This document shows, piece by piece, positions 6,047 through 40,479 of a DNA stretch of 64,000 nucleotides (the stretch's first letter is position 1; each line of letters starts with the position of its first letter). Source of the stretch: a virus; the IMG/VR virus record IMGVR_UViG_3300044712_001062, positions 71,062-135,061 of that record; one strand, 5' to 3'. The notes below the pieces were generated by a model. The model was given only the letters and a program-made list of their open reading frames with translations. It was not told where the DNA came from and made no database searches. A program made the position numbers and the translations under genes.

Positions 6047-7220
6047 AGATGTCCTTCGATGAATTCATAAACATCATCATTTGTTTCGATAGGCTCTTCA
6101 GAATTTAAATAATCATTGATAATTTCAACAATTTTAGAAGTTGGAAAATTATTAGATACTAAAGCATTAAGCAATGTATCATGTGTCTCGTAATTCATGA
6201 TTTAATACTCTGAAAGTTTATCGGGTTCAAAATCGATTATGATGTATCCACGTGGGCAATCACCACGTAAGCAACAAGATATATTCCTATAAAATAAATC
6301 ACAATCATATTCGCATGATTCAAATTTAGCCATAATTTTAATCCTCATTATTTTTCATTTGAGTTTTACAACCATTATAGTAATATTCATTGAGGTTATC
6401 TTTGAATATTATTACTTCATGGCATTTGGAAGGTTTTTCACAGATGTAATAGTTGTTTTCTTCTCTCATAGTGTCATTGCATACTGGGCATATCATGTGA
6501 TACTCCTTGGTTTTTAGAATTTTAAGGGGGTTGTTTTCAAATTTGAGATGTTCAAATGGCTATGCTGAATGTTATTTTTAGGGAGTGAGCCTAAATAATA
6601 ATTTGGTATTTTTAAATTTAGAAAAGTGAAGTGATCATATAGGTGAGTTGATCATATAGGTGATGATCTTATTCGGGATTTAAGATCAGGTGGATTGGGG
6701 TCCATTGCGAGTGATGAAAGGTTTAAGGTTTTCAGTATGGCTTACTGGATGGTGTTTTTACATGGGCATCAGCCATCAGCACAAATTAAGGATTGAACCT
6801 TGGAATTTATGAAAATAAGTAAGGGGGTTACTTATTTTTGACAAAGAAAACGGGACGCATTTGTAGTTTTTAATGAGGATATCAGCCTCCAAAATGTAAG
6901 TAGGGATTGAGCCTACGTTACATCGAACACTATGAATTAGTAATAGGTTTGGTGAGGTGATTGTTTGGTGGTCAATGATAGTTTGTATATTAAGACTTCA
7001 GGAGTTATAGTTCATCAATGAGGATCGGTTCACTGATCGACTATTAGTTTTTATTCAGGGTTTCGCCTGGACAATTAGAAGTGGAGTGAACCACTATCTA
7101 ATTACCATACACGTAGACATTTCATTTCTATTTTTTTTGTTTGTCGACATTTGGCATCAGAAAATGAATAGGATAAACATTTTTAGTAATTAATCATTTC
7201 ATCATTTGCCTAATGTTTAA

Positions 7221-7303
7221 TGGGTAATAGCCGATTTGCACGGCTGAACTCCTATGAGGCGACATCTTGAGTGTCGTGGGTTTGACTGCTTCCCTAATTA
7301 CCC
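7221..7303 (-). tRNA. tRNA-Leu(CAA), long variable arm
   Basis: Minus strand folds as a cloverleaf: acceptor GGGTAAT/ATTACCC-A, anticodon arm CGACA-CTCAAGA-TGTCG, long variable arm, T arm AGCCG-TGCAAAT-CGGCT. No encoded CCA. Confidence 0.88.
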
Positions 7304-7694
7304 AAAATTTGAGCATTTGGTTGGTTGATGTTCGATACCTCACACTTTGGAAACAGGTTAGTGTTTCATTGGCCTCTCATCACATGACCAATCCGGGTGA
7401 GTATCGGATTTGAAATGATCATGCACATGTGGAGATTGGTGAACTGACTTCCATTTGTATATGGTTGTTAGTTCCCTGTTATGTATATTGTATGTCAGAG
7501 GTTATATACATTTTGGTTGGTAGTTTGAATCTGGGAAAGTTTGTTTCTTTGATTCGTTGCTACGATACTAATGTTGGTTTGATTAGTATTTATAGTTATG
7601 GGATTTATAATTTGTTAAAATTGAGAAGGGTTATCAGTTTTGAGAAGAGTAAAGGATCTGAAAATGGTGTGATCGCTAATTAGGTTCTCCAAGT

Positions 7695-13920: not shown

Positions 13921-14460
13921 CAGTGATATTTTTGTGATATTTTTGTGATATTTTTTTTTCGATTTTTTCAAGTGTTACGAATGTGAGATTTTTCACATCA
14001 CAATTTTTCCAGTGATGTTGGTGTTACGAATGTCCAGGTTAGTGTTATCACAATTTGTTCAGTGATATCACAAAATAGTGTTATGGATTTGATGATTGGT
14101 GTTACTGTGATGTGGGTTTGTATGTGGTGATGTTAGATCGGCGGGTTAATAGTGGGGGGATTGACGAATGGTTGGTGATGTGGGGTTAGTGATATCACTG
14201 GGAATAAAAAACGGGGCGGTAGCGGTGGGTAATACATGAAAGCTGGTGTATATAAATCAATCCCAATATTTTCCAATTTTATCAACCGAAAATTTAATCA
14301 ACCAAAAAAACATATTAAAAATTACACCCATAAAATTTCAAAATTACATCCACACCTCCATTAAATTTTATCAAACGAAAAATCTACCCAACCCCCTCCT
14401 ATTTTTATCAAACGAAAAAATTAACTTTGATACCATCATTCATTCTATCAAACGAAACTT
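13921..14460. repeat. iteron-like repeat cluster at the strand-skew switch (putative replication origin or genome-end region)
   Basis: More than 10 GTG(A/T)TAY motifs in 13921-14200, including GTGTTACGAATGT x2 and palindromic AGTGATATCACT. TATCAA(A/C)CGAAA x4 at ~14280, 14369, 14406 and 14446. The + strand flips from G/T-rich to C/A-rich at ~14230. Confidence 0.6.
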
Positions 14461-16193: not shown

Positions 16194-16234
16194 CACCAAA
16201 ACATTTTTATACTATTAAAAATATACTATAAATC

Positions 16235-16816
16235 ATGAAAGAAAAAATTTTATCAAATCTCATACTTAACACTACTTGTGAATATTCAGAATTCATCATC
16301 CCACTATCATTACTCACACAATCCAACAACCAAACATTATCAAAAAAAGTCACATTCAATGCTGATTGGTGTAATACATCACCCGAAGAAATAAAGAGTG
16401 GTATAGCAAAAACTTCTTTAATGCTATCGAATCGCATAGATCTCGAAATTATAAAACTATTAATTAATTTTCAAAACCCACTTACTTTCATATCTAAAGA
16501 TAAATGGAAAAATGGAGGGATTGCATATGACATTGGGGAATCAATTCCACAAGAACACATAACACTATTCTATCCACTCAAACTATACCAGTATAATATA
16601 CATGAGCAACTTAAAGAACTTTCAAATTTCCATACAATAAAAGCAATTGGCACTATGAAATTGAACCGCATAAATAAGGCAATAGTAATCGCATCTGAAA
16701 CCCCAATACAAATAACATATAATATATCATTCGATGGCGATCAAATGGGCAATTTCGATTACACTATTAAAATAGATCCAAATGCTGATATCTACATCAT
16801 AGAAAATATTTGCTAA
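16235..16816 (+). CDS. truncated, diverged paralog of the major capsid protein
   Basis: Four colinear blocks shared with 26569..27519: NRIDLEII/NKRDLNIL, W..GG..YDIG/W..AG...GDIG, FYPLKLY/YYPLKLF, IGTMKLN/IGSTKLN. Confidence 0.7.
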   Translation: MKEKILSNLILNTTCEYSEFIIPLSLLTQSNNQTLSKKVTFNADWCNTSPEEIKSGIAKTSLMLSNRIDLEIIKLLINFQNPLTFISKDKWKNGGIAYDIGESIPQEHITLFYPLKLYQYNIHEQLKELSNFHTIKAIGTMKLNRINKAIVIASETPIQITYNISFDGDQMGNFDYTIKIDPNADIYIIENIC

Positions 16817-17027
16817 AATCACCCACCCCTATTTTATTCCCTGCAAAAAATATGCGCTAATGGTTCTCCAAGTCATTATATACAACCTGAACACCCCCAA
16901 CCTACCAAACATTTAAATACTTTAACTACCAACATACTAAATGCAAGGGATGTTGTTAACTGATCCACTAACAAACCCTTAAAATTCGATCATTAATTAA
17001 TCAATGATCACCAAGGAGCAAATTCAA

Positions 17028-17252
17028 ATGTCAAACGAAGTATCTTACCCAATCGCAACTACCGAATCAATCATTAAGAAGAATGCAGGCGTTCACCGCA
17101 TTTCACATGGCGCTGGAGTAAAACTCGCAAGTCTCGCAGCATCACATATCATCGATCTCGCAACCAAGGCCAACACCGTGGCAACTCACGCTGGACGCAC
17201 TACGATCCGCGAAGAAGATATCGATGTAGTTCTCGGCCTCTCCTCAAATTAA
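17028..17252 (+). CDS. archaeal histone (HMf-type single histone fold)
   Basis: PIA...IIK..AG..RIS...HAGRTTIREEDI matches the HMfB pattern; GGAG SD at 17015. Confidence 0.92.
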   Translation: MSNEVSYPIATTESIIKKNAGVHRISHGAGVKLASLAASHIIDLATKANTVATHAGRTTIREEDIDVVLGLSSN

Positions 17253-17325: not shown

Positions 17326-17398
17326 AGTCCTATAGTGTAGTGGCCAACCATACTGGATTTTGAGTCCGGTGACACCAGTTCGAATCTGGTTAGGACTA
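17326..17398 (+). tRNA. tRNA-Gln(UUG)
   Basis: Acceptor AGTCCTA/TAGGACT-A (A1:U72, typical of archaeal tRNA-Gln), anticodon arm CTGGA-TTTTGAG-TCCGG, T arm ACCAG-TTCGAAT-CTGGT. Confidence 0.93.
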
Positions 17399-19088: not shown

Positions 19089-19661
19089 ATGTTCATCAAA
19101 CCAATTCAAACACGATATCAAGGTTATAATTTTCGAAGTAGGCTTGAAGCACGTTGGGCAGTATTTTTCGACGCTTTAAACATCAACTGGGAATATGAAA
19201 GTGAAGGATATGTATTGCCAAATGGCAAAAATTATCTCCCAGATTTTTATTTACCACAAGTAAACATGTATGTAGAAGTAAAGCCAAAGATTGGTTTTGA
19301 TGAAATTGCTCTTTCTAAATGTAAAGAACTTGTAATGTCATTAAAATGTGGAATATTGCTTGCCGAAGGAATGCCAGGATCTACCCCAGTTATAAATGGC
19401 TATGAATATGGCGAGCAACTATACGAAGATGATGGAACATACATAAATCCAAACCCTGACGAATACATTGCGGCAAAATACCAATATCATCTATGGAATC
19501 CACATAATTACCATCAATGCGAAGGTAGATTTTATAACGATCCTGGTTGGTATCCCAATTATGTATATTATATGGACGAAATTTACAAAAATATCATCAA
19601 TGAAGCGGCGAACAAAGCAAAAAGTGCGAGATTTGAATTTGGTCAAAATGGCCCAACATAA
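19089..19661 (+). CDS. PD-(D/E)XK nuclease (phage endonuclease I-like)
   Basis: FRSRLEARWA...WEYE...YLPDFYL....VEVKP. Confidence 0.85.
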   Translation: MFIKPIQTRYQGYNFRSRLEARWAVFFDALNINWEYESEGYVLPNGKNYLPDFYLPQVNMYVEVKPKIGFDEIALSKCKELVMSLKCGILLAEGMPGSTPVINGYEYGEQLYEDDGTYINPNPDEYIAAKYQYHLWNPHNYHQCEGRFYNDPGWYPNYVYYMDEIYKNIINEAANKAKSARFEFGQNGPT

Positions 19662-21206: not shown

Positions 21207-22682
21207 GTGTCAGAAACTTTATCACTCAAAGAACGCCTTGAATATGCCAAAACAGTCAATAAGGCACGCAACGATCCAATTTGGTTCTTAAGAGATGTGA
21301 TGGGATGGAAAACAATATTCCCAAAACAAGAAGAAATTATTAGAACATTTTATCAATATAAATATGATCAAACACTTCCGGAATTTAAAAAGTTAATAAT
21401 CAAAGCGGGTCAAAGATCGGGTAAAACGGTATTAGGAGGCAAGATAGCCTCTTTTGAATTTTTCGAACTGGTGAGTTTGGACAACCCACATGAACACTTC
21501 AATGTTCTTCCAAGTCAGCCAATTGCTATTTCTTGTGTTGCAGCAGGCCGTGAACAAGCAATGGACGGTATCTACGCAGTTATGCGCAATGATATTGAAC
21601 AAAGCGAGTGGTTTAATCAATGGTTCGATCTAAAAATCAATGATGGTCGAATTACCTGCCCAAAAAAGAATGTATTTGCCCAAGTGACTGCAGCGAAAGC
21701 AGGGAGTGGCGCAGGCACTGGATATACCTCAAAATTTTCATTAGCCGATGAAATAGACCTATTTCAGCAAACGGACTCCAAAGTGGGCGCAGAAATTGTT
21801 TGGTCAAAAATGGTTAACTCTACTCAAAGTTTAGGTATAAAAGGTAAGTGCATGGCCATTTCATCCACTCAATTTTCGGGTGGGATGATTGAAAAATTGT
21901 ACGGTGATGGAATATATGAAGATACCACATTAACTTACGATCTCAAAACATGGGAATGTAATCCACGATTCAATGAAGCCGCTCTCCGTGAAGAATATAA
22001 ATATAAAATGGAAATGTTCTGGAGAGATTTTGCAAATCGACCCGATGTATCTGGTGGACTAGTATTCCCACAAGGAGTTCGTTTCAACCGCAATATCACA
22101 AATGTATTCGAAACTGATCGAATTCCCGAAGAATCACAACGACATTATCATGTTCTTGCGTGCGATCCTGCATACCGCAACGATTCTTTTGGTATGTCAT
22201 GTGGGTATCGTGATGGCAATCACATAATTATCGACGGGGTAATGAAATTCGAAAAACGCGATACAAATGACGCATATGTCCTTCCATCCGACATCGAAGC
22301 AGGAATCGAAAAAGCAATACACGATCTCAATGTCACCACCCTCATATATGATACTGATACCATGATGCAAGTCATCGAGAAATGTGATAATCAATGGGGT
22401 GTTGAAACGCTTAAACATATTGCTGATTCTGAAGTTTATGGAACTTGGATGAGCCTGAATGATGATGTTGGTGAATTTAACTTGGATGTTGTATATAACG
22501 AACATTTAAAGAGAGAAGCCGAACAACTCATCAAAGTTCAAAAAGCACGAGGTATAAAAGTCGATCACACTGCCTACTCAAGCAAAGATTTGGCAGATAC
22601 GACTGCTCACTGTATTTGGTATTTAGCCAACAACGAAGGCGGATCCATCTACACCCCAAGTGGTGGAATATACCGCATCTAA
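21207..22682 (+). CDS. terL: terminase large subunit
   Basis: GQRSGKT Walker A, LADEID Walker B, ISS coupling motif, ACDPA...DSFG and KDLAD nuclease motifs. Confidence 0.93.
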   Translation: MSETLSLKERLEYAKTVNKARNDPIWFLRDVMGWKTIFPKQEEIIRTFYQYKYDQTLPEFKKLIIKAGQRSGKTVLGGKIASFEFFELVSLDNPHEHFNVLPSQPIAISCVAAGREQAMDGIYAVMRNDIEQSEWFNQWFDLKINDGRITCPKKNVFAQVTAAKAGSGAGTGYTSKFSLADEIDLFQQTDSKVGAEIVWSKMVNSTQSLGIKGKCMAISSTQFSGGMIEKLYGDGIYEDTTLTYDLKTWECNPRFNEAALREEYKYKMEMFWRDFANRPDVSGGLVFPQGVRFNRNITNVFETDRIPEESQRHYHVLACDPAYRNDSFGMSCGYRDGNHIIIDGVMKFEKRDTNDAYVLPSDIEAGIEKAIHDLNVTTLIYDTDTMMQVIEKCDNQWGVETLKHIADSEVYGTWMSLNDDVGEFNLDVVYNEHLKREAEQLIKVQKARGIKVDHTAYSSKDLADTTAHCIWYLANNEGGSIYTPSGGIYRI

Positions 22683-22820: not shown

Positions 22821-24500
22821 ATGGCTCTCCCAGAGTATAATGAGGTTGAATTTATGTCTGAAACAAAATCGAAGCGTAGACAACGCTATAAATTTTCTGC
22901 AGCCTCCAATCGAACGCCAAACAAATTGCCAACGCAATCTTTTACTCGTCCGTGCGTATCGGGAGTCGCTGTTCATCAGGCAAATTCATCTAATTTCGTT
23001 AATTTTTTAAACGGCATATCGGACTTCGCGAATGAGCCAAAAGACGATCTTCTCGAACACATGTATACCATGGAACCCGAGATCGCAAGTGCAGTGGACA
23101 GTTTCGCACTTATGGTTCGCGAATCCTTTAAATACTTTGATGTAATTAACGATACAGAATTAGATAATTTGCCAGACAAATTAGAAATTGACGATCAAAC
23201 ATTTGATTTCTCCAAGGCCAATAACAAATTACTTCGTGAAATGGTAGATGTCGCCAATAAACTTTCCAAGGAACTTGACATCAAAAATCTATACGAAATT
23301 TATGCATCAGTATTGTTCATGCATGGGAATCTATTCCTTAAAATCAACAAAAACTTATCATTAACAGTCCTTCCAAATGATCGCGTAACAGTATTAGACA
23401 CCCTCAACCGCCTGCAGGATTCAGCAAGTGGTAATACAATCGACGATCTCATGATGCAGGCTAATTTCCTCGTTGTTGATGAAAATTTAGACACCCAGAA
23501 AATCTACAACAAAGGCGAGTTCATCATCATCAGATTCCGCGACACCCCACTCTATGTTGAAGACTCTAAAGGCCGAGTAACCTACGGAATATACGGTGTT
23601 TCGCCACTTCGACGCACTATCATCCCAGTATGGTATAAGCGTATTATTATGGCCAATGACGCACTCTGGCGATACCGAAACGTCCCACGCCTGCACGTAC
23701 AATTGGCAGCCGAATCATTCAATTCGTTGAACTTCCAGGGAAATCCAGAACTTCGCCGCCAAAAAGCCGAAGGTGCAGCAACATCCGCATTATCACAGCA
23801 AGCCGCTGTAATGGAAGAACAAGGCCCCGATCAAGCATTCATCACATTGGACACCACTAAAATTTCCACGGTGGACGCTAATTCCGGCGGATATATGCAA
23901 GCAAATGAACTTCTAAACCAAGTTAATGAATCTATATTTTCAGCCGTTAATATGCCCGTCTCGATCATCAAGGGAGTTTCATCATCCAATTATGCAAGTG
24001 AACTTGTGATATACGCACATGCAAGCATAAAAGTTGCCCAAATCGCTGATAAAATTTCCCGAGTAATCCTCAAGATCATGAAGGAAAGACTTCGTCTTAT
24101 CAACCCATCATATCCAGTTGAATTCCTCGAATGCAATATAAGCGCAGACATCAGTGCAAACCCACTTGACAACCTCAAAAAGGCTCAATTCAAATACGCA
24201 ATGTCTGGATGCTACACAGAAACCGAAATACGACGAACTACCGGTGATAAACCCCTTACCGAAGAACAAAAGAATTCCAGCGAACTCATCAAGAAGTTCG
24301 AAGCAGAAGTCAAAAATCTCAACACAAAACAAACAACATTTGCTGATTACAACACACCTGGTGGAAATTCCAATGGGCAAACATCATACCCAACCACCTC
24401 TCATAGCGCTGACAAACAACCAACAGACACCGCACAAGCCGTCATCAACAAAGGGGCCAACAGCAAAATAAACGAAAAAACCGGAATGAAACCCATCTAA
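22821..24500 (+). CDS. portal protein
   Basis: Follows TerL; 559 aa; HGNLF, YGIYGVSPL and SSNYAS portal-type motifs. The start may be 22854. Confidence 0.85.
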   Translation: MALPEYNEVEFMSETKSKRRQRYKFSAASNRTPNKLPTQSFTRPCVSGVAVHQANSSNFVNFLNGISDFANEPKDDLLEHMYTMEPEIASAVDSFALMVRESFKYFDVINDTELDNLPDKLEIDDQTFDFSKANNKLLREMVDVANKLSKELDIKNLYEIYASVLFMHGNLFLKINKNLSLTVLPNDRVTVLDTLNRLQDSASGNTIDDLMMQANFLVVDENLDTQKIYNKGEFIIIRFRDTPLYVEDSKGRVTYGIYGVSPLRRTIIPVWYKRIIMANDALWRYRNVPRLHVQLAAESFNSLNFQGNPELRRQKAEGAATSALSQQAAVMEEQGPDQAFITLDTTKISTVDANSGGYMQANELLNQVNESIFSAVNMPVSIIKGVSSSNYASELVIYAHASIKVAQIADKISRVILKIMKERLRLINPSYPVEFLECNISADISANPLDNLKKAQFKYAMSGCYTETEIRRTTGDKPLTEEQKNSSELIKKFEAEVKNLNTKQTTFADYNTPGGNSNGQTSYPTTSHSADKQPTDTAQAVINKGANSKINEKTGMKPI

Positions 24501-26568: not shown

Positions 26569-27519
26569 ATGGTAGATAAACATATTATAGGATCTAACGT
26601 ATCCGTTGGAGAAGGCGTCCTTAAAGCAGGCACTCTTTCACTTACTCAACTCATCGATCTGACTTCTTACGAGCAGATGGAGTTTTATGGGGCTGCATCT
26701 TTCAAGAATGTAACCAATCTTGATGTGCACCGTGAATTCACCAAGCGTCTAACTGGTGGAGTATTCGACAGTTCTGAAGGTGGAATGGTTCCCTACACCA
26801 CTGATGAAGTGTTCGAGAAATTCATTCACCTGAACAAGAGCCGATTCGCTGTCAAACTCACTGATGAGTCCAAGATTCGTCGTGACATGGCATTCCAGTT
26901 GAACAGCGCAATTGATCGTGCTGGTGAAACTTTCGCTAACAAGCGAGACCTTAACATCCTCAATGCAATCAAGAACGGCTACGGAGTTACCAAGGCTGCT
27001 TCCGCACAGTGGGATGCTGCAGGTGCTGATGTAACTGGTGATATTGGTGGACTTCTTGACACTCTCTTCAACAAAGAAGATGTTAGTGTTCGTGAAGGCG
27101 ACATCAATGGTATGAAAATTTATTACCCACTGAAACTGTTCTCACAGATTCGTGAACCAGCCCGTCTCATGTCTGCAACCTCACAGGTCGCAAGCCGAAT
27201 TCAGGTCAACACTTCTGATCTTGAATGGTCCAAGGACACCTATGGCGTTGAATGGATTGGTAGCACTAAACTGAACTACCTTGGAAATGTCTACGCTGTA
27301 ATTCCAACCCCTAACAAGACTCTCGATCACTACACCTACACTGGCCCTGACGCACCTGGCGTTGAGCGTGCCCGTGATATCTACAGTGGTAGTGAAATGT
27401 TCGTTCACACCAAGTACTTCAATTCAATGGTAATCCCAGAGAATGAAGACACTCTGAACAACAACTATCGTATCATGAGAATCAGCGGTGTATGTGCAGC
27501 AAGCACCTTCACACCCTAA
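26569..27519 (+). CDS. major capsid protein (HK97 fold)
   Basis: Position, 316-aa size, SEGG.VP motif, spine-helix-like ANKRDLNILNAI, strong GAGGTGA SD and optimised codon style. Confidence 0.8.
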   Translation: MVDKHIIGSNVSVGEGVLKAGTLSLTQLIDLTSYEQMEFYGAASFKNVTNLDVHREFTKRLTGGVFDSSEGGMVPYTTDEVFEKFIHLNKSRFAVKLTDESKIRRDMAFQLNSAIDRAGETFANKRDLNILNAIKNGYGVTKAASAQWDAAGADVTGDIGGLLDTLFNKEDVSVREGDINGMKIYYPLKLFSQIREPARLMSATSQVASRIQVNTSDLEWSKDTYGVEWIGSTKLNYLGNVYAVIPTPNKTLDHYTYTGPDAPGVERARDIYSGSEMFVHTKYFNSMVIPENEDTLNNNYRIMRISGVCAASTFTP

Positions 27520-33522: not shown

Positions 33523-36500
33523 ATGGCTCAATACAGTGATGAACAGTATAGCAGGATGGTTAAGGCCATTAATGGTGCATTAAGTGGAATTTTCAATAAG
33601 CCAAGAGAATTACCACATTATGCGGAGGGCACTAACGATCTTACTGGCACACAAAAAATTGAGCAATATGCAAGAGACTTGATGCTTGGTGGAATATCCC
33701 CAGAGGAAATAGCGAGGAGATATGCTGCACAGCAATTCGCTCAAAAAGGAAAATATAGCGAAGCATCAGTCAAACAACTTGCTCCTCACATCGCTGATCG
33801 CCTACAGCCAATTCGACAAAATGTTCAATCACAAGTAAGTAAATATAATCAAGTTAAGGATCCTGTATTGGAAAATGTCATTCGCATTATTGGACTTACT
33901 GGCCATACTTCCAATATGAAAGCCATAATGGATGGCAAAAATATTAGTCCTGAACTCCAGGAAATGTATATTAAAAATGCATATGCAAAGAGATCTACTA
34001 TTGCGACTAATAATTTCCAAAATATTATAAAGTCGAAATCAGGCCCTGAACTTGAAAAATACCTCAAATCACTTGCAAGAGTTAAAACTTCAAATCCACA
34101 ATTTGATCAAATAGGTGGTGATATTGGTGGAAATGCAGTGGCAAGACACGTTCGATCTTTAATGAAGGCCAATGAACCTAATATCATGGGAATGGGTATT
34201 AGTCGATCTATCCTGCGTAATTATATTCCAGATGTTAAACCAATTGCTGCCAAACCAGCCACTCAAATTTCAGATTCATATGCCCAAAAATTCCTACAAA
34301 ATGTTCAACGTAATCAATCATTAAAAGGTCACTTTGCAGCCTTGCAAAACTTTACTAAAGTTGGACAAAACCTTCCAGCATTTGGCCTGCAAAATATGCT
34401 TAAGAGCCTTAAATCTCCTAAAATGCCCAATCAAATTAGTAGATTGCCAAATTTAAATTTCATGGGCAATAGTCGTGATAGTCATAAATATGGCATTTTA
34501 GATTCTATTAAGTCACGTAAAAAAGATATAATATCAACTGGACTCCAAGGCGCTGGAATCGCAGGACTTGGAATGCTTGGAAGTTTTGTTGGTAATCTAT
34601 TTTCAAGTGGAATTCCAATGCCATTTAAAGAAGGGGGTATGATTCCCCGATTTAATAGCGGTGATTATATAGATGCAGAAGAAGCACAGGGTGGACAACT
34701 TCAGTTTAGAAATGCTGATTACTTTAATAAAATATACAAGGAACAAGTAAATGGATTGATGAATTCCAAGGGTAAAAATCTTACTTTTTGGAGAGGAGCA
34801 GATGGCCACGATCCATCAGTAATATCTGATAATCAAATGGAAACTTCTGGAAAATGGTTCACTCCAGATCAGAATTATGCACAGGACTATGCCAAGTATA
34901 CTAAAGGTAGTTTGTTTCGTGTAGACATTCCAAAGAAAGATGTAAAACATAGCCAACTTCGCAATTGGTTATCACAAGCAGCATCTCCGAATGAAGCAGT
35001 GTTGCCAAAGAATTTTGCTGCAATGGCAAAACATTGGGGCAAATTTGCTAAAGGTGGACTTGGTGGTATACCTGCACTCATTTCGTCACATGAAAAATTC
35101 GTCTCGCCAAATGTAACTGGAAAATATGGAGTTAAACTCCTAAATGCTATAAACCGAGGTGGGATTGATGGAAATTTAGATAAACATGAACAATTATCAA
35201 TTTCCAAGATGATCTCTGGTAAACAATTGTCAAATGGTGGGATTTCGACTATTATGGGTGGTAGTGGGAATCCAACTGCTGATGACATATTTAGTGTATT
35301 GCCAAGAAATTCATATATTGTCAATGCCAAGGCAAGTGCTGAAGTCGATAAGCATTTCCCAGGTTTGTTAAATTCAAGTGGAGTTAGTCGATTTGCAAAT
35401 GGTGGACTTGCTGGATTTGCCAAGGGAGATCAAGTAGATCCACGCAAATATGATTCAATTGCCAAGAACTTTGTAGGATCTTACAGTGCCGATATGGGCA
35501 CGAGTAGTGATGCAATATATGGTAATTTATTAGGCTCCAAGGATTTATTTGCATTAGTTGCCAAGAATACTAATAGACGACAGGGAGATTTACGTAGTCA
35601 ATTAGATAGTGGTGATGTTAAGGCTCACGATGATTTGAAAAATTATGCAAATCGAGTAATGCCAATTGTTGAACAGGCAATTAAACAGGCATTTCCAGAT
35701 ACAGTTAGAAATCCGGGACTTGATGGTAAATCATATCCAAAAGTTGATTATTCAAGTGATGGTTCGAAATTTAACAATCAGCGATATTCAAGTATAGCGG
35801 GAGTAGGTCCGACTCAACCACAATACGGTGATAAAGTTGCACATGCTGGAATTACATCTTCATTTTCAACAGTTCCTGGTGCTGGTCTAACCAATGTAAT
35901 GAGCAAAGGCTTTGAACAATACAATGCAAATAATGATCCTTTTGCATATTTAATGAGATCGTTCAGGAAAAATAATGCTGAACAAAAAATTGATCAGTTT
36001 TTTAAAAATATGCATATGGCAAGTCAGGTAATGGGAAAGGGTATTTTTTCAGAATCTGATGATATGGATGTTGGTGATCGTAGATCAATGGGTAAGTCAA
36101 GTGTTGGTGGTTTGTATCGTGGACACATGACCTATAAACAGGGAGAACTTACTGATCATGCTGGTGCTCCAATTGGCCCCGCGGGTGCTCGCATAGACAT
36201 GAGCGATGCTTGGGCATGGTCTACTGATGAATTAAATAGTATTGGAAAAACAAAACCAAATCGTGGTAGAATTAGAAGTGCAATTCATGATATGAGTGGT
36301 GGTATTGGGACGTTCTTTAAAAACATGGGAAGTCCAATGGATACCAAATATAGTTTCTCTGCACAAGCAAATGCTGATGTTGGTGGAATATATTCTAATA
36401 TTGATACCAGTAAATTGTCAATTGACGAACTTACAAAGGTTTTGGAAACTGGTAGACTTAATGGGCAAGATCCACAAGAACTGAAGAAACTTTCAGCATT

Positions 36501-39500
36501 TATTAGCAATCGCAAGGCATATGACGATGCTCCTAAAAATATTGCTGAAGAATTTAGTCGTGAATTTGGCAATACAATTGGAAAAAGTCAAATAAAAGAT
36601 TTAATTAATATTGAACGTGGTGTAGCGACTGATAACAAAGGAACTCAAAAAGCAACTACTGTGGTTACTACTGATATATTAAAAACAATGCTTGATAAAA
36701 GTGGAATGGATCCTGCTGAAATTGAGCAACGTATTGGTCATGTAATGAGCAGGGTTTTCCAAGTCCCTGAAGAAATGAGACCAAATTATCAAAGGGGTCT
36801 GACTGATAAACTATCAGCAGGAGTAATGGGGACTAATGGGCAGATGGTTCGTGGTCGTACTGACTTAATGAACTTTGATAGAGAAGGTCGTCCAGAATTA
36901 AATGCAAATGCCATAAAACAGTCGGGTGCTGATTTAAATCAAGTTCGTAAAGTAGCAAATGAATATCACAAAGAATTTATTGCGAATAATAATGTAGCCA
37001 CAGTTTCTGTTAATCATACTGCGGAATCGGTTAAGAAGGTTGGTCTTGGCATTGGTGAGATGAGCAAGAGTGAGAAAATCTTATCTACACTTTCTTGGAA
37101 ATTTGCATCGTTAAGTATGTCGGCAATGGGTGTATATTTCTCCATGCAGTCTGTGATAATGATCTTCCAGCAGGCTGTAGGAGCAATCACAGGACCACTT
37201 AGTGATATCGAAGGTATGATGAAGAACATTGGCATGTCCAATGCTTTTGGTGGTCTTGTAAACGCCAATAGCGTGATGGACAAGATGAATGTCAATGTCG
37301 ATGATCTTACTAATGGATGGAAGCAGGTAACTGGATTAACCGCGACTATTCAGACGATGTTTGCCACATTAGGTGCTAAAGTTTTTGGTGATTCATCATT
37401 TAGCGATAGGTTATTGGGGCCGCTTCAAGATTTATTTGCTGAATTGGGTAGTGCTGAAAACATTGATACATTCCAAAGTTTAATTGAAAGTGTAGTTAAG
37501 GCTGCTCCTGCAATGGTCGAAGGAATGAAGACATTTGCAAGCGTCCTTAAGATGATTACGGACAATCAAGGTTTAATGCAAGTGCTTGCCAATTTGTATA
37601 TAATGTCGATTTTGGTTCAGCCCCTTGCAAGTGGATTTACTGCATTGCTCACAGTGATTGGTGGATTTGCCGAGATGACAAGGCTTGTCCAAACTTTCAA
37701 TGCCGCGTTACTTGCAACTGAAGCAATTTCCAAGAGTTCGGCAGCATCATTCTTGGTTGGATGGGGATTAGTCCTCGCAGAAATTTTACTCGTTGTCGAA
37801 GCAGTTAGTGAACTTGCCAATTTAATGCAAGTATCGCCAATGTTCCTTGGACAAGGTAATTACCTACCGACATTATCCAATGGCCTTAATATTTCAGGGG
37901 TAACAGGCGCTCTTACTGGAACTCAAGGCAATTTCGCAACTGGCGGAGAAGTTAATGGTCCTGGTGGTCCACGCGAAGATAAAGTCAATGCAAGATTAAG
38001 TGATGGTGAATATGTTATTAATGCGCAATCATCCAAGAAATTAGGCAAAACATTCCTCGATGATTTGAACAATTTCGCGCAAGGTGGCACACCAAATCCA
38101 GCATCAATTCCATTAGGCCCAAGTGCAGCATATGATGTAGGTGGTCGATCCGACACTAATTACTATGGTGGAAAAACAGTAAGTGCGTTGGAAGATAATG
38201 CAACAGTAAATGGTATTACTTCCAAAGTATTGAATGATGCCAAGGAAAGTGATGGAATTGGCGTATATGTTCGCAATTGGAAAGAAGGAGATTGGGGTCC
38301 AGGAAAAGGTAATGGTAATAACCAAACACCATTCCAACTTCCAGACATTGGATATGTTTCAAGATTGTTAAGTGCAACTCCAAATAATTTCAACTTCAAT
38401 GGAAATAATGCAAATGCAAATCCAAATCCAACAACAAACCCAACTACAAATCCAGGCAGAATAACTGTAAATCCAAGCCCAACACCAAATCCTACGCCAA
38501 ACCCTACGCCAAATCCATCGCCTACACCAAATACAAATCCAATATCAACTGTAATAAATTCAATAGTTTCATCAATAACTTCATTATTAGCAACTATGAA
38601 TTCTACAACTGTTGGTTACAATCCAAAGACTGGAAGGGTTCGTGTTAGAATACCACCACCACCGAAACAAAATGGTAGTGGGTCAACTAATCACCAATCT
38701 GGAAATATAAATCCGTCAGCAGGGTTTGCAAATAGTGAACTGTCTGAAATTTACTACAATCATGCTGGATATAGAAAGTGGGGAGATATTACTGATTATG
38801 GTCCACAGTCACGTAAGAAAACTGGATATATGGATCGGTGGAATAATGGTAATTACAATTATGGAAATGCTCCAGCAAATGCACAAAATGCAGCAGGGAG
38901 AAAGTTTACATTAGATCCGCAATTTGGGTTTATCCCTGGTGATTACGTAGGTCCAAATCAACGAGCATTATGGAGTAATGATGCAACGTGGGGTAGTGAT
39001 CCAGCAGATCATGGAATGACTATGCAAGTTGCTGCAACTACTGGTGGTGATGCTGAATCAGTAGCAAAGGCATATGGTTCAGTAAAAGTTCAGAATGCAA
39101 TAGTTGGATATGCGGGAAAAGGATTCCAATGGGCTGGCCAAGGTGCACCTGCGGCAATTGCAAAGGTTGGTGCAAAATATGCTCCACAAATGCTTCAGAA
39201 TAGTAAAACTGCAGGAATTGCTGGTAGATATGCAGCAAGTGGTGTTGGTAAAGGAGCTGCACTTGCAGGAACTGCATTTACAAAAGCCAATGCAATTGCA
39301 TTCAATCCATATGTAATTGCAGGGGCTGGAATATTAGAAGCAGGATCTGAAAATGACAAGTTTGTTAAGCAAGGTCAATCACTTGACAGTATGATGGATC
39401 CAAAATACAAGTCAAATTCAGTAACTGGTTTATTAACTGGGGGAGCAGTAGCACCTACCTATGCACGAGGAATGAAAATTATGGCTGCATCATATGGCAA

Positions 39501-40479
39501 GTCCGAAAAAGAACTTCGTGAAATGATGCAACAAATGGATCCTGTAATGAGTATTGGGGCAGGACCGGGAACAGTTGCAAGAAATGCTTTGAAAGGTCTT
39601 ACTGGAAGTGATGCTACATATAATGATACAGCGAAGAAATTAGAAAATTATCGAGATGGTGTTACAGATTCTATAAAGAGAATTAATAAAAATATCACAT
39701 TGCCAATTATTGGTGAAATAGGAACTAACACTGCTGCTGGACTTGTCAAAGATTCATACAATTTAGTTGCAAAGGCAATGACTGCAAATGTTGGAGATAT
39801 CGTTGCAATGGGAGCAAGTGGTGTTGGAATGGGAGCAACTGCAATGGATGTTAGTAAAGATGTTGGAAGTGCAGTTACTCAAAATCCATGGAGTGCTGCA
39901 CAAATGTTTTTATCTGCTGGAATGCCAGGGGTTCCAATTCCAGGAGCGTCAATTGTAGGCACGATGACTGCCGATATGCTAATGCCACAGACAACCCAAT
40001 GGCTTAATGATGGTAGATACAAAGAACAAAGTGGAGTAACCCCGCTTACAATTGATGGCAAAGATACTGGATATTATCAAGGTGGAGAAACAGCAGCATC
40101 AATTGCATCATTCAACGAGGCAATCACATCAGCAGTAACTAACATTAATGACTTATTCGGAAAGCAAACCAATGATCAACTAAATACATTTGGTGTTGCA
40201 TATGCTGGAAAAGATGATAGCGCAACGGTGAACTCTATTACTGGAGTTTCAGATACCACTGCATTATCCAACACATTCTTACAGATGCTCAAGGAACAAC
40301 AGACTGTTCAACAACAGCAACAACAACCAGTTTCTACAGTTCCTGAAAATGTCCAAGTTGTAATCACGGTAACTGGTAGTGATAAGAATGAAATTGCAAA
40401 TCAAGTGATGCAGCAAATTCAGGCTCAATTACCACAGATGCTTCAACAAGGTAAAACACAAACCAGTAGAACTTCATAG
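33523..40479 (+). CDS. tape measure protein with accessory domains
   Basis: 2318 aa after the chaperone; central amphipathic/hydrophobic helices; repeated FAxGG motifs and GPGGPREDKVNARLSDGEYVINA (TMP C-terminal-type motif); PN/PT-rich linker. Confidence 0.85.
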   Translation: MAQYSDEQYSRMVKAINGALSGIFNKPRELPHYAEGTNDLTGTQKIEQYARDLMLGGISPEEIARRYAAQQFAQKGKYSEASVKQLAPHIADRLQPIRQNVQSQVSKYNQVKDPVLENVIRIIGLTGHTSNMKAIMDGKNISPELQEMYIKNAYAKRSTIATNNFQNIIKSKSGPELEKYLKSLARVKTSNPQFDQIGGDIGGNAVARHVRSLMKANEPNIMGMGISRSILRNYIPDVKPIAAKPATQISDSYAQKFLQNVQRNQSLKGHFAALQNFTKVGQNLPAFGLQNMLKSLKSPKMPNQISRLPNLNFMGNSRDSHKYGILDSIKSRKKDIISTGLQGAGIAGLGMLGSFVGNLFSSGIPMPFKEGGMIPRFNSGDYIDAEEAQGGQLQFRNADYFNKIYKEQVNGLMNSKGKNLTFWRGADGHDPSVISDNQMETSGKWFTPDQNYAQDYAKYTKGSLFRVDIPKKDVKHSQLRNWLSQAASPNEAVLPKNFAAMAKHWGKFAKGGLGGIPALISSHEKFVSPNVTGKYGVKLLNAINRGGIDGNLDKHEQLSISKMISGKQLSNGGISTIMGGSGNPTADDIFSVLPRNSYIVNAKASAEVDKHFPGLLNSSGVSRFANGGLAGFAKGDQVDPRKYDSIAKNFVGSYSADMGTSSDAIYGNLLGSKDLFALVAKNTNRRQGDLRSQLDSGDVKAHDDLKNYANRVMPIVEQAIKQAFPDTVRNPGLDGKSYPKVDYSSDGSKFNNQRYSSIAGVGPTQPQYGDKVAHAGITSSFSTVPGAGLTNVMSKGFEQYNANNDPFAYLMRSFRKNNAEQKIDQFFKNMHMASQVMGKGIFSESDDMDVGDRRSMGKSSVGGLYRGHMTYKQGELTDHAGAPIGPAGARIDMSDAWAWSTDELNSIGKTKPNRGRIRSAIHDMSGGIGTFFKNMGSPMDTKYSFSAQANADVGGIYSNIDTSKLSIDELTKVLETGRLNGQDPQELKKLSAFISNRKAYDDAPKNIAEEFSREFGNTIGKSQIKDLINIERGVATDNKGTQKATTVVTTDILKTMLDKSGMDPAEIEQRIGHVMSRVFQVPEEMRPNYQRGLTDKLSAGVMGTNGQMVRGRTDLMNFDREGRPELNANAIKQSGADLNQVRKVANEYHKEFIANNNVATVSVNHTAESVKKVGLGIGEMSKSEKILSTLSWKFASLSMSAMGVYFSMQSVIMIFQQAVGAITGPLSDIEGMMKNIGMSNAFGGLVNANSVMDKMNVNVDDLTNGWKQVTGLTATIQTMFATLGAKVFGDSSFSDRLLGPLQDLFAELGSAENIDTFQSLIESVVKAAPAMVEGMKTFASVLKMITDNQGLMQVLANLYIMSILVQPLASGFTALLTVIGGFAEMTRLVQTFNAALLATEAISKSSAASFLVGWGLVLAEILLVVEAVSELANLMQVSPMFLGQGNYLPTLSNGLNISGVTGALTGTQGNFATGGEVNGPGGPREDKVNARLSDGEYVINAQSSKKLGKTFLDDLNNFAQGGTPNPASIPLGPSAAYDVGGRSDTNYYGGKTVSALEDNATVNGITSKVLNDAKESDGIGVYVRNWKEGDWGPGKGNGNNQTPFQLPDIGYVSRLLSATPNNFNFNGNNANANPNPTTNPTTNPGRITVNPSPTPNPTPNPTPNPSPTPNTNPISTVINSIVSSITSLLATMNSTTVGYNPKTGRVRVRIPPPPKQNGSGSTNHQSGNINPSAGFANSELSEIYYNHAGYRKWGDITDYGPQSRKKTGYMDRWNNGNYNYGNAPANAQNAAGRKFTLDPQFGFIPGDYVGPNQRALWSNDATWGSDPADHGMTMQVAATTGGDAESVAKAYGSVKVQNAIVGYAGKGFQWAGQGAPAAIAKVGAKYAPQMLQNSKTAGIAGRYAASGVGKGAALAGTAFTKANAIAFNPYVIAGAGILEAGSENDKFVKQGQSLDSMMDPKYKSNSVTGLLTGGAVAPTYARGMKIMAASYGKSEKELREMMQQMDPVMSIGAGPGTVARNALKGLTGSDATYNDTAKKLENYRDGVTDSIKRINKNITLPIIGEIGTNTAAGLVKDSYNLVAKAMTANVGDIVAMGASGVGMGATAMDVSKDVGSAVTQNPWSAAQMFLSAGMPGVPIPGASIVGTMTADMLMPQTTQWLNDGRYKEQSGVTPLTIDGKDTGYYQGGETAASIASFNEAITSAVTNINDLFGKQTNDQLNTFGVAYAGKDDSATVNSITGVSDTTALSNTFLQMLKEQQTVQQQQQQPVSTVPENVQVVITVTGSDKNEIANQVMQQIQAQLPQMLQQGKTQTSRTS

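Follow-up and report, generated by a model that had tools for sequence, protein, structure and literature searches.

A miniaturised paralog of the major capsid protein encoded outside the head gene row of a probably archaeal tailed virus

The vertex protein gp24 of T4 is reportedly a paralog of the major capsid protein gp23, and is said to be near full length, encoded in the head gene cluster and built into the shell as a stoichiometric subunit. Ccm of SaPIbov5, a homolog of a major capsid protein (MCP), takes pentamer positions and reshapes the helper capsid (PMC8569155). In this study we describe a short gene, ORF193, that lies outside the head module of a virus possessing its own full-length MCP gene and whose product seems to put the capsid fold to another use. 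The window, meaning the whole 64,000-nucleotide stretch of DNA analysed, makes up the right-hand 64 kb of one virus record of 135,061 bp (genome G000), on which the genes for the large terminase subunit (TerL), portal, MCP and tail are found together with ORF193. A search of the literature, supplementary files aside, found no description of a miniature MCP paralog of this sort. The two genes compared here are as follows.

16235..16816, plus strand: ORF193, the mini-MCP (mini) gene, 193 aa; a miniaturised paralog of the HK97-fold MCP, assigned from the open reading frame, homology and relatives
26569..27519, plus strand: the MCP, 316 aa, HK97 fold by AF2 and Foldseek; parent type of the paralog

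Homology to the major capsid protein

The full-length MCP has 17 homologs in public data, at 33-85% identity. Their alignment served for an AlphaFold2 model (pLDDT 62) in which two long strands are followed by a 31-residue helix, by mixed A-domain elements and finally by C-terminal strands, as expected of an HK97 fold. Searching the PDB with this model by Foldseek returned 333 matches at E<=0.001 (best 3.6e-10), headed by phage capsids and encapsulins and including SaPIbov5 Ccm (PDB 7rwz) at rank 8. Precomputed tables label the window MCP family PF25209 Phage_capsid_4; that family had no match at E<=10 anywhere in the genome, MCP included, Pfam at E<=1 gave no family for either ORF193 or the MCP, and a comparison of the MCP with 50,697 deposited phage records gave no match.

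The case for paralogy made in the sequence-only reading was based on four motif blocks, all of which are present and colinear in ORF193 and the MCP. Pairwise BLASTP aligned residues 52-130 of ORF193 with residues 110-202 of the MCP (23/95 identical; E 0.004, for a single comparison), and hhalign aligned residues 51-163 with 110-259, adding the block IGTMKLN/IGSTKLN and covering all four. Taken from ORF193 alone, evidence of this kind is borderline. When ORF193 was compared with its own 135,061-bp genome by tblastn, the match to the MCP had an E value of 1.1 and was not the best non-self match; an 18-MCP profile matched ORF193 in hhalign with a probability of 31.9% (E 4.9e-4). The 18-MCP HMM, run on 843 six-frame ORFs of the genome, placed ORF193 as the best non-self match (E 0.023; next 0.57), and shuffled versions of ORF193 reached its full-sequence score in 0/5000 cases and its best-domain score in 3/5000.

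The decisive evidence came from relatives, whose matches to the MCP profile are stronger than that of ORF193 itself. Four intact relatives were found, giving a five-member family of 175-229 aa, or 55-72% of MCP length. Two are proteins from public metagenomes: P0020 (191 aa, E 3.6e-4), the sole relative in a phmmer scan of 1.84 billion representative proteins, and P0021 (203 aa), which was added by profile search. The other two came from scans of viral contigs and belong to genomes that each carry a full-length MCP beside the mini, namely G001 (175 aa, L006:9875-10402, on a 43-kb record) and G003 (229 aa, L012:2183-2872, on a 66-kb record). Against the 18-MCP profile, hhalign gave a probability of 93.3% and E 2.6e-7 for P0020, E 7.6e-8 for P0021, E 2.6e-12 for a three-member mini profile, and a probability of 98.6% and E 6.9e-16 for the five-member profile. 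A leave-one-out HMM made from three non-window minis and run on the 843 genome ORFs recovered ORF193 (4e-16) and the MCP (3.8e-7), the next match standing at 0.2. For the core segment alone, hhalign gave E 8.8e-19, and the reversed control gave P 0.58. Considering the profile matches of the relatives, the leave-one-out HMM and the reversed-sequence controls, we take the homology of ORF193 and its family to the MCP as established, with something close to certainty.

The family HMM also indicates which capsid lineage is involved. It picked out the resident MCPs of G001 (2.3e-10), G003 (7.4e-10) and the G004 contig (6.7e-8), and in a second comparison its matches to the MCPs of G001 and G003 and to that of a related 25-kb contig stood at 1e-10 to 1e-11, whereas the more distant G002 MCP was not recognized (E 0.68). 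Recognition of MCPs within the lineage, with that of G002 missed, is consistent with descent of the minis from this MCP lineage and not from another HK97 protein.

Several broader searches bounded the family. Pfam and PHROGs cover none of the five minis (best E values 0.043 and 0.062, respectively; no family for ORF193), a word-indexed protein search with ORF193 returned only itself among 116 candidates, and viral contig scans with A5 and with P0020 yielded no further member. Among genome contigs, 243 pattern matches contained no mini relative, and in 401 genomes sampled from the class of a Methanospirillum metagenome-assembled genome (MAG) the sole match was the MCP of that MAG. A PDB sequence search with the mini profile gave one match, a chain named "Capsid protein," at a nonsignificant E of 1. 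Both the mini and the histone gene are absent from G002, a complete relative of 127 kb; an 89-aa frame in it (L001:8486-8752, E 0.025) was considered as a mini and dismissed, as it overlaps a longer opposite-strand ORF. In a close relative, L002 (TerL 84% identical), the contig starts 66 bp upstream of the histone gene, and the position where a mini would be expected is off the contig. Among sequencing runs, no RNA run was listed for the sequence; the only run listed was a DNA run that may be its source, and the contigs of that run showed no variants.

Anatomy and genomic setting of the minis

The significant part of the alignment is confined to a core, given here for both proteins.

16385..16717, plus strand: mini core, ORF193 residues 51-161; aligns significantly with MCP residues ~112-252, which take in the spine helix along with strands and a helix of the central A-domain
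26902..27324, plus strand: MCP residues 112-252, to which the mini family aligns in hhalign

Core residues of ORF193 include D69, W91, D99, YPLKLY at 113-118 and G139..LN144. In the MCP model, the matched part consists of the long spine helix (107-137), the strand that follows it and central A-domain elements. Beyond the core, the last 14 columns of the alignment gave P 0.005, compared with 0.17 for the reversed control, and end at a cysteine common to the MCP (IYIIENIC versus RIMRISGVC); the N-terminal 50 residues are suggestive (EYSEF versus EQMEF) and not significant (P 0.32).

ORF193 had been described from its letters as lacking most of the N-terminal part of the MCP. The shortening is borne out and appears to extend beyond the N terminus, with losses in eight or more segments. 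A joint alignment, tentative outside the core, leaves about 102 MCP residues unmatched in four or more of the five minis, the segments concerned being 5-23, 49-77, 83-88, 166-177, 199-206, 257-263, 274-281 and 310-316. The largest of these, 49-77, corresponds in the MCP model to the first strand and the tip of the E-loop hairpin. The minis do not retain all of the shell-forming elements (N-arm, E-loop hairpin, P-domain and A-domain), insofar as the tentative outer alignment can be followed. The mini therefore looks like a colinear, miniaturised MCP and not like a simple N-terminal truncation, a description that is tentative outside the core.

A predicted model of the mini was of low confidence (pLDDT 41). 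It has a strand at 34-42, a 29-residue helix at 50-78 and then strands, in the same order of elements as the MCP model. Foldseek with this model gave best E values of 0.024 (PDB) and 0.012 (BFVD), with 0/500 matches at E<=0.001. Of the profile and structural comparisons suggested in the sequence-only reading, the former thus gave a significant alignment (98.6%, E 6.9e-16), and the latter, made with this poor model, gave no significant match. The first 23 PDB rows listed for the mini model were all capsid or encapsulin entries, and the named BFVD rows were mostly major capsid proteins; coming from a poor model, these rows are only consistent with an HK97 fold, which for the mini we infer from its homology to the MCP. 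The nonsignificant BFVD list also holds two small uncharacterised proteins, encoded by Pseudomonas phage Noxifer (164 aa, rank 1) and Lactococcus phage CHPC1170 (197 aa, rank 14), which may be small HK97-like proteins in other phages and are offered as leads only. Leads from the ESM Atlas were discarded: the best feature score was 0.84, below the useful range, and neighbours had TM 0.29-0.36 with a model pLDDT of 0.29.

The surroundings of ORF193 in the window include the following features.

16200..16211, plus strand: TATA-box-like element AACATTTTTATA, 24-35 bp upstream of the ORF193 ATG; putative promoter
16908-16919: near-identical TATA-like element AACATTTAAATA, upstream of the histone gene
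17004..17252, plus strand: histone-fold gene (PF00808, 1.4e-8), neighbour of the mini
21207..22682, plus strand: TerL, 491 aa, with PHROG terminase matches; start of the packaging/head module and synteny anchor
22821..24500: portal, in the head gene row

The gene properties noted at first sight hold up: ORF193 encodes 193 aa from an unambiguous ATG, one codon after the preceding stop; it is AT-rich, with a GC content of 30.2% compared with 35.9% for the genome and 45.6% for the MCP gene; and it ends 187 bp upstream of the histone-fold gene. Its GC3 is 25.8%, compared with 44.8% for the MCP gene and 45.8% for the histone gene, which suggests modest expression. All minis are acidic (pI 4.4-5.6). 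Archaeal promoters have a recognized consensus, the basis on which the TATA-like element upstream of ORF193 is read as the gene's own putative promoter and the T-rich stretch after its stop codon as a putative terminator. The promoter motif AACATTTWWATA occurs 11 times in the window, against 7.4 matches expected, and thus shows no enrichment and defines no temporal class.

Small unannotated genes surround ORF193; TerL follows 4.4 kb downstream of it and the MCP gene 9.75 kb downstream. The head row runs in the order terminase, portal, a 374-aa protein, a 191-aa virion protein and MCP. Other observations in the window include a tRNA-Gln(TTG) at 17326-17398 directly 3' of the histone gene, a tRNA-Leu(CAA) on the minus strand at 7220-7304 and a 2318-aa open frame in the tail region at 33523-40479. 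A 190-aa protein encoded at 19089-19661, just upstream of the packaging genes, matches phrog_21138 (9e-36) and PHROGs for Holliday-junction resolvases or endonucleases (3e-12). GC skew switches sign (+0.42 to -0.22) near position 14000, about where genes turn from the minus to the plus strand, and this switch may mark a boundary from which transcription or replication diverges; beyond it, in the rightward arm, the mini follows after about 2 kb.

Placement of the mini is similar across the genomes that carry it. In G000, G001 and G003 it is on the TerS/TerL strand, 1.3-5 kb upstream of those genes, and outside the head gene row (portal, protease or scaffold, MCP), at distances from the MCP gene of 9.75 kb in the window, 12 kb in G001 and 8 kb in G003. 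In G003 just 70 bp lie between the mini and the packaging gene row downstream of it. In G000 and G001, by comparison, a few genes on the opposite strand stand between mini and packaging genes, making cotranscription with head genes unlikely in these two. A histone-fold gene adjoins the mini in G000 and G001 and is 3.7 kb away in G003 (PF00808 matches at window 17004-17252, G001:C1:19054-19248 and G003:C1:53139-53327), and the co-occurrence of mini and histone across four genomes may reflect mere kinship. The TerL of G001 (L006:14498-17341) has 947 aa, compared with 491 aa in the window, and contains a long insert with a Cys start and an HN-then-S end that looks like an intein.

The host is probably an archaeon, a methanogen, given the histone gene and a related MCP contig binned with the Methanospirillum MAG. 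That contig (L015, 25 kb) encodes an MCP 44% identical to that of the window, and the mini profile found no mini anywhere in the MAG. This contig hints at the host lineage; in the genomes searched, those of the MAG and of the 401 from its class, the virus group does not show up as a common provirus.

Divergence and retained residues

In a maximum-likelihood tree of 22 MCPs and 5 minis over 174 shared columns, the minis were monophyletic (UFBoot 99), and G003 was the first to branch among them, as it was among the corresponding MCPs. Patristic distances between minis exceeded those between the MCPs of the same genomes (2.38 versus 0.63, 3.27 versus 1.17 and 3.55 versus 1.16), so that minis diverge 3-4 times faster than MCPs. 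The MCPs of G000 and G001 share 63% identity, compared with 28% for their minis; the relatives with which ORF193 groups are only 25-31% identical. The three minis for which DNA is available are only 25-29% identical, and synonymous sites are thus saturated. Their frames are nonetheless intact in all three genomes, where the probability of an open frame arising by chance at the base composition of the gene is 3e-7, 3e-7 and 3e-10.

What has been retained is found preferentially where the MCP is itself constrained. Among the columns invariant in all five minis, 12/13 carry the MCP majority residue. The MCP residue is kept in 89/190 cells (47%) at columns invariant among in-group MCPs and in 121/675 (18%) at variable columns, a contrast that alignment bias somewhat inflates, and the set of mini-invariant columns was unchanged in an alignment built without any MCP. 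Invariant residues common to the minis and the MCP are D127, D158, Y186, P187, K189, L190, G231, L235, N236, I302 and I305. Maintenance of the minis by selection is very likely. The earlier proposal of an exapted capsid fold, kept for a role other than that of the main shell, is supported in this general form: the gene is intact in three genomes, monophyletic, faithful to the MCP majority at those 12 of 13 positions, and outside the head module. These features speak against the decaying duplicate that the proposal named as grounds for its refutation; the particular roles it offered (decoy, assembly modulator, interference) are candidates only.

Two further patterns bear on how minis change. 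P0020 and P0021 form a mosaic in which the N-terminal 75 columns (72/75 identical) and the C-terminal 41 columns (39/41) enclose 90 central columns with only 30/90 identities, and the A-domain-like centre looks like a cassette swapped by recombination. G003 holds a third MCP-like piece (L012:1368-1830), about 350 bp upstream of its intact mini, in two overlapping frames, of which 1353-1661 corresponds to MCP HMM positions 106-155 (E 0.34) and 1552-1827 to positions 210-252 (E 1.3e-5). This piece has no YPLKLY block and is probably a frameshifted or decayed tandem copy; its split over two frames indicates that copies can decay. BLAST scores between minis and MCPs showed no consistent preference for the MCP of the same virus, and, as minis do not score best against their own MCP, there is no sign of mini-MCP coadaptation.

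Candidate roles and known systems

The mini most likely works by resembling the MCP, since the MCP core is preserved and no new motif has appeared. In the model we propose, the mini family goes back to one duplication of the MCP gene, which took place no later than the base of a lineage of tailed, probably archaeal, viruses. About 100 residues would then have been lost, apparently including the first strand and the tip of the E-loop, and the mini would have been inherited with the virus since that time, diverging 3-4 times faster than the MCP while selection kept the MCP invariant core, namely the last part of the spine helix together with strands of the central A-domain (D..W..D.., YPLKLY, G..LN). 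The product would mimic a capsomer, docking on MCP subunits or on capsomers through its spine-helix and A-domain core, and, having no E-loop, could not be locked into the lattice. It might thereby cap, chaperone or poison head assembly, either that of its own virus, with an effect on timing or geometry, or that of co-infecting relatives.

The steps of this model differ in strength. That the mini acts by mimicking the MCP is somewhat probable; that its partner is the MCP or head assembly is a tentative suggestion at best; and the model as a whole, a family of MCP mimics docking on the MCP or its capsomers, is the best overall explanation we can offer while falling short of a probable one. A link to morphogenesis is favoured by the position of the mini on the TerS/TerL strand, upstream of those genes, and by the 70-bp distance from the packaging row in G003. 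A complex prediction for MCP and mini, made without controls, scored 0.00 and speaks neither for nor against binding. The low GC3, and a complete genome (G002) that does without the gene, suit an accessory gene that can be dispensed with no less than they suit an assembly factor.

In the main rival explanation, the mini is an immune decoy or sponge: by displaying the surface of the MCP A-domain and spine to a host capsid-fold sensor, it would soak up or block that sensor with no activating oligomer being formed. Three STAND sensors of bacteria, Avs7, Avs8 and Avs10, are reported to wrap around the HK97 fold and to contact the conserved region of the A-domain that forms capsomers (PMC13581612). 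It is this region that the minis keep. Fast divergence, patchy distribution (absence from G002), low GC3 and a position among small unannotated genes all suit such a role. So does the exchanged centre of P0020 and P0021 between near-identical flanks, swapped central cassettes being frequent in arms-race proteins. However, we know of no MCP-sensing system in archaea, and literature searches turned up no virus-encoded capsid decoy, so that the idea has no precedent; on balance we judge it unlikely.

Slightly less doubtful, and still improbable in our estimation, is the wider proposal that the mini is the first virus-encoded capsid mimic, with a stripped-down HK97 core, diversifying pressure and swaps of A-domain-like cassettes, acting either as a decoy or as a dominant-negative capsomer poison. 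If true, this would represent a capsid fold exapted as a weapon within the virus's own genome, directed against host capsid-fold sensors or against co-infecting relatives.

A minor virion component, such as a specialised penton or portal-proximal capsomer subunit in the manner reported for T4 gp24, is less probable again. The mini is a paralog of the MCP in the same genome, retains the capsomer-forming core and is encoded on the strand of the packaging genes, upstream of them, and SaPIbov5 Ccm provides an example of an MCP homolog able to occupy pentamers (PMC8569155). Against this, the mini gene stands apart from the head gene row, has evolved at 3-4 times the rate of the MCP, has a low GC3 and is missing from the complete genome G002. 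Its product also lacks about 100 residues, including, on the tentative alignment, the E-loop region with which known shell subunits make lattice contacts.

We consider it highly improbable that the mini is a functionless, decaying remnant of an MCP duplication. Minis do diverge fast, ORF193 is the most eroded member with the weakest match to the MCP profile (E 4.9e-4), the additional MCP-like copy in G003 is broken into two frames, and the searches turned up no ortholog from the closest relatives (MCPs about 84% identical). Decay, however, would not account for five intact members at 25-31% identity in frames that chance would not keep open, for retention specific to MCP-invariant sites (47% versus 18%) or for the conservation of length class and genomic position. 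Chance resemblance to an unrelated MCP, which the own-genome search (E 1.1) and the 31.9% hhalign probability for ORF193 alone might have suggested, is refuted by the profile and leave-one-out tests, in which independent relatives match the MCP profile better than ORF193, and has a negligible probability.

Our preferred reading, a mimic that docks on the MCP or its capsomers, can be set beside what is described elsewhere. Duplicated capsid genes are known as extra shell subunits, reportedly in the case of T4 gp24, and, in the case of Ccm, as satellite assembly hijackers. Like the mini, gp24 is said to be encoded by a second HK97-fold gene that arose by MCP duplication in the same virus genome. 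Unlike gp24, the mini has 55-72% of MCP length, apparently lacks the E-loop region, has its gene away from the head module, has diverged at 3-4 times the MCP rate and does not occur in one complete relative.

Encapsulins, which appear among the top nonsignificant matches of the poor mini model, likewise exemplify reuse of the HK97 fold outside the virion, as proposed here for the mini. They are full HK97 folds that self-assemble into shells and are encoded in cellular genomes, whereas the mini is viral and shorter than the listed chains (244-395 aa), and nothing suggests that it forms a shell.

The closest precedent for the proposed mechanism is Ccm, a diverged MCP homolog that alters the assembly of another MCP (PMC8569155). 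Ccm is encoded by a satellite that parasitises a helper phage, and it occupies pentamers, whereas the mini is much shorter and is virus-encoded beside its own MCP. The mini is not satellite-borne: G000 encodes TerL, portal, MCP and tail genes, and G001 and G003 carry a full MCP together with the mini.

In comparison with the MCP family of the window, the minis have significant profile homology over MCP residues 112-252 and invariant residues in common, and differ in leaving about 102 MCP residues unmatched, forming a separate clade, occupying another genomic position and evolving faster. If the mini binds the MCP, it would provide a natural minimal fragment for the study of HK97 capsomer contacts, and the control of assembly, or the interference between viruses, that it exerts would be of a new kind. 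Binding to a host sensor would instead be evidence that archaea sense the capsid fold and that viruses evade this sensing. The family is distinct from the described cases in being much shorter, apparently without an E-loop, virus-borne outside the head module and intact despite 3-4 times faster divergence, and what it preserves is the invariant core of the MCP itself.
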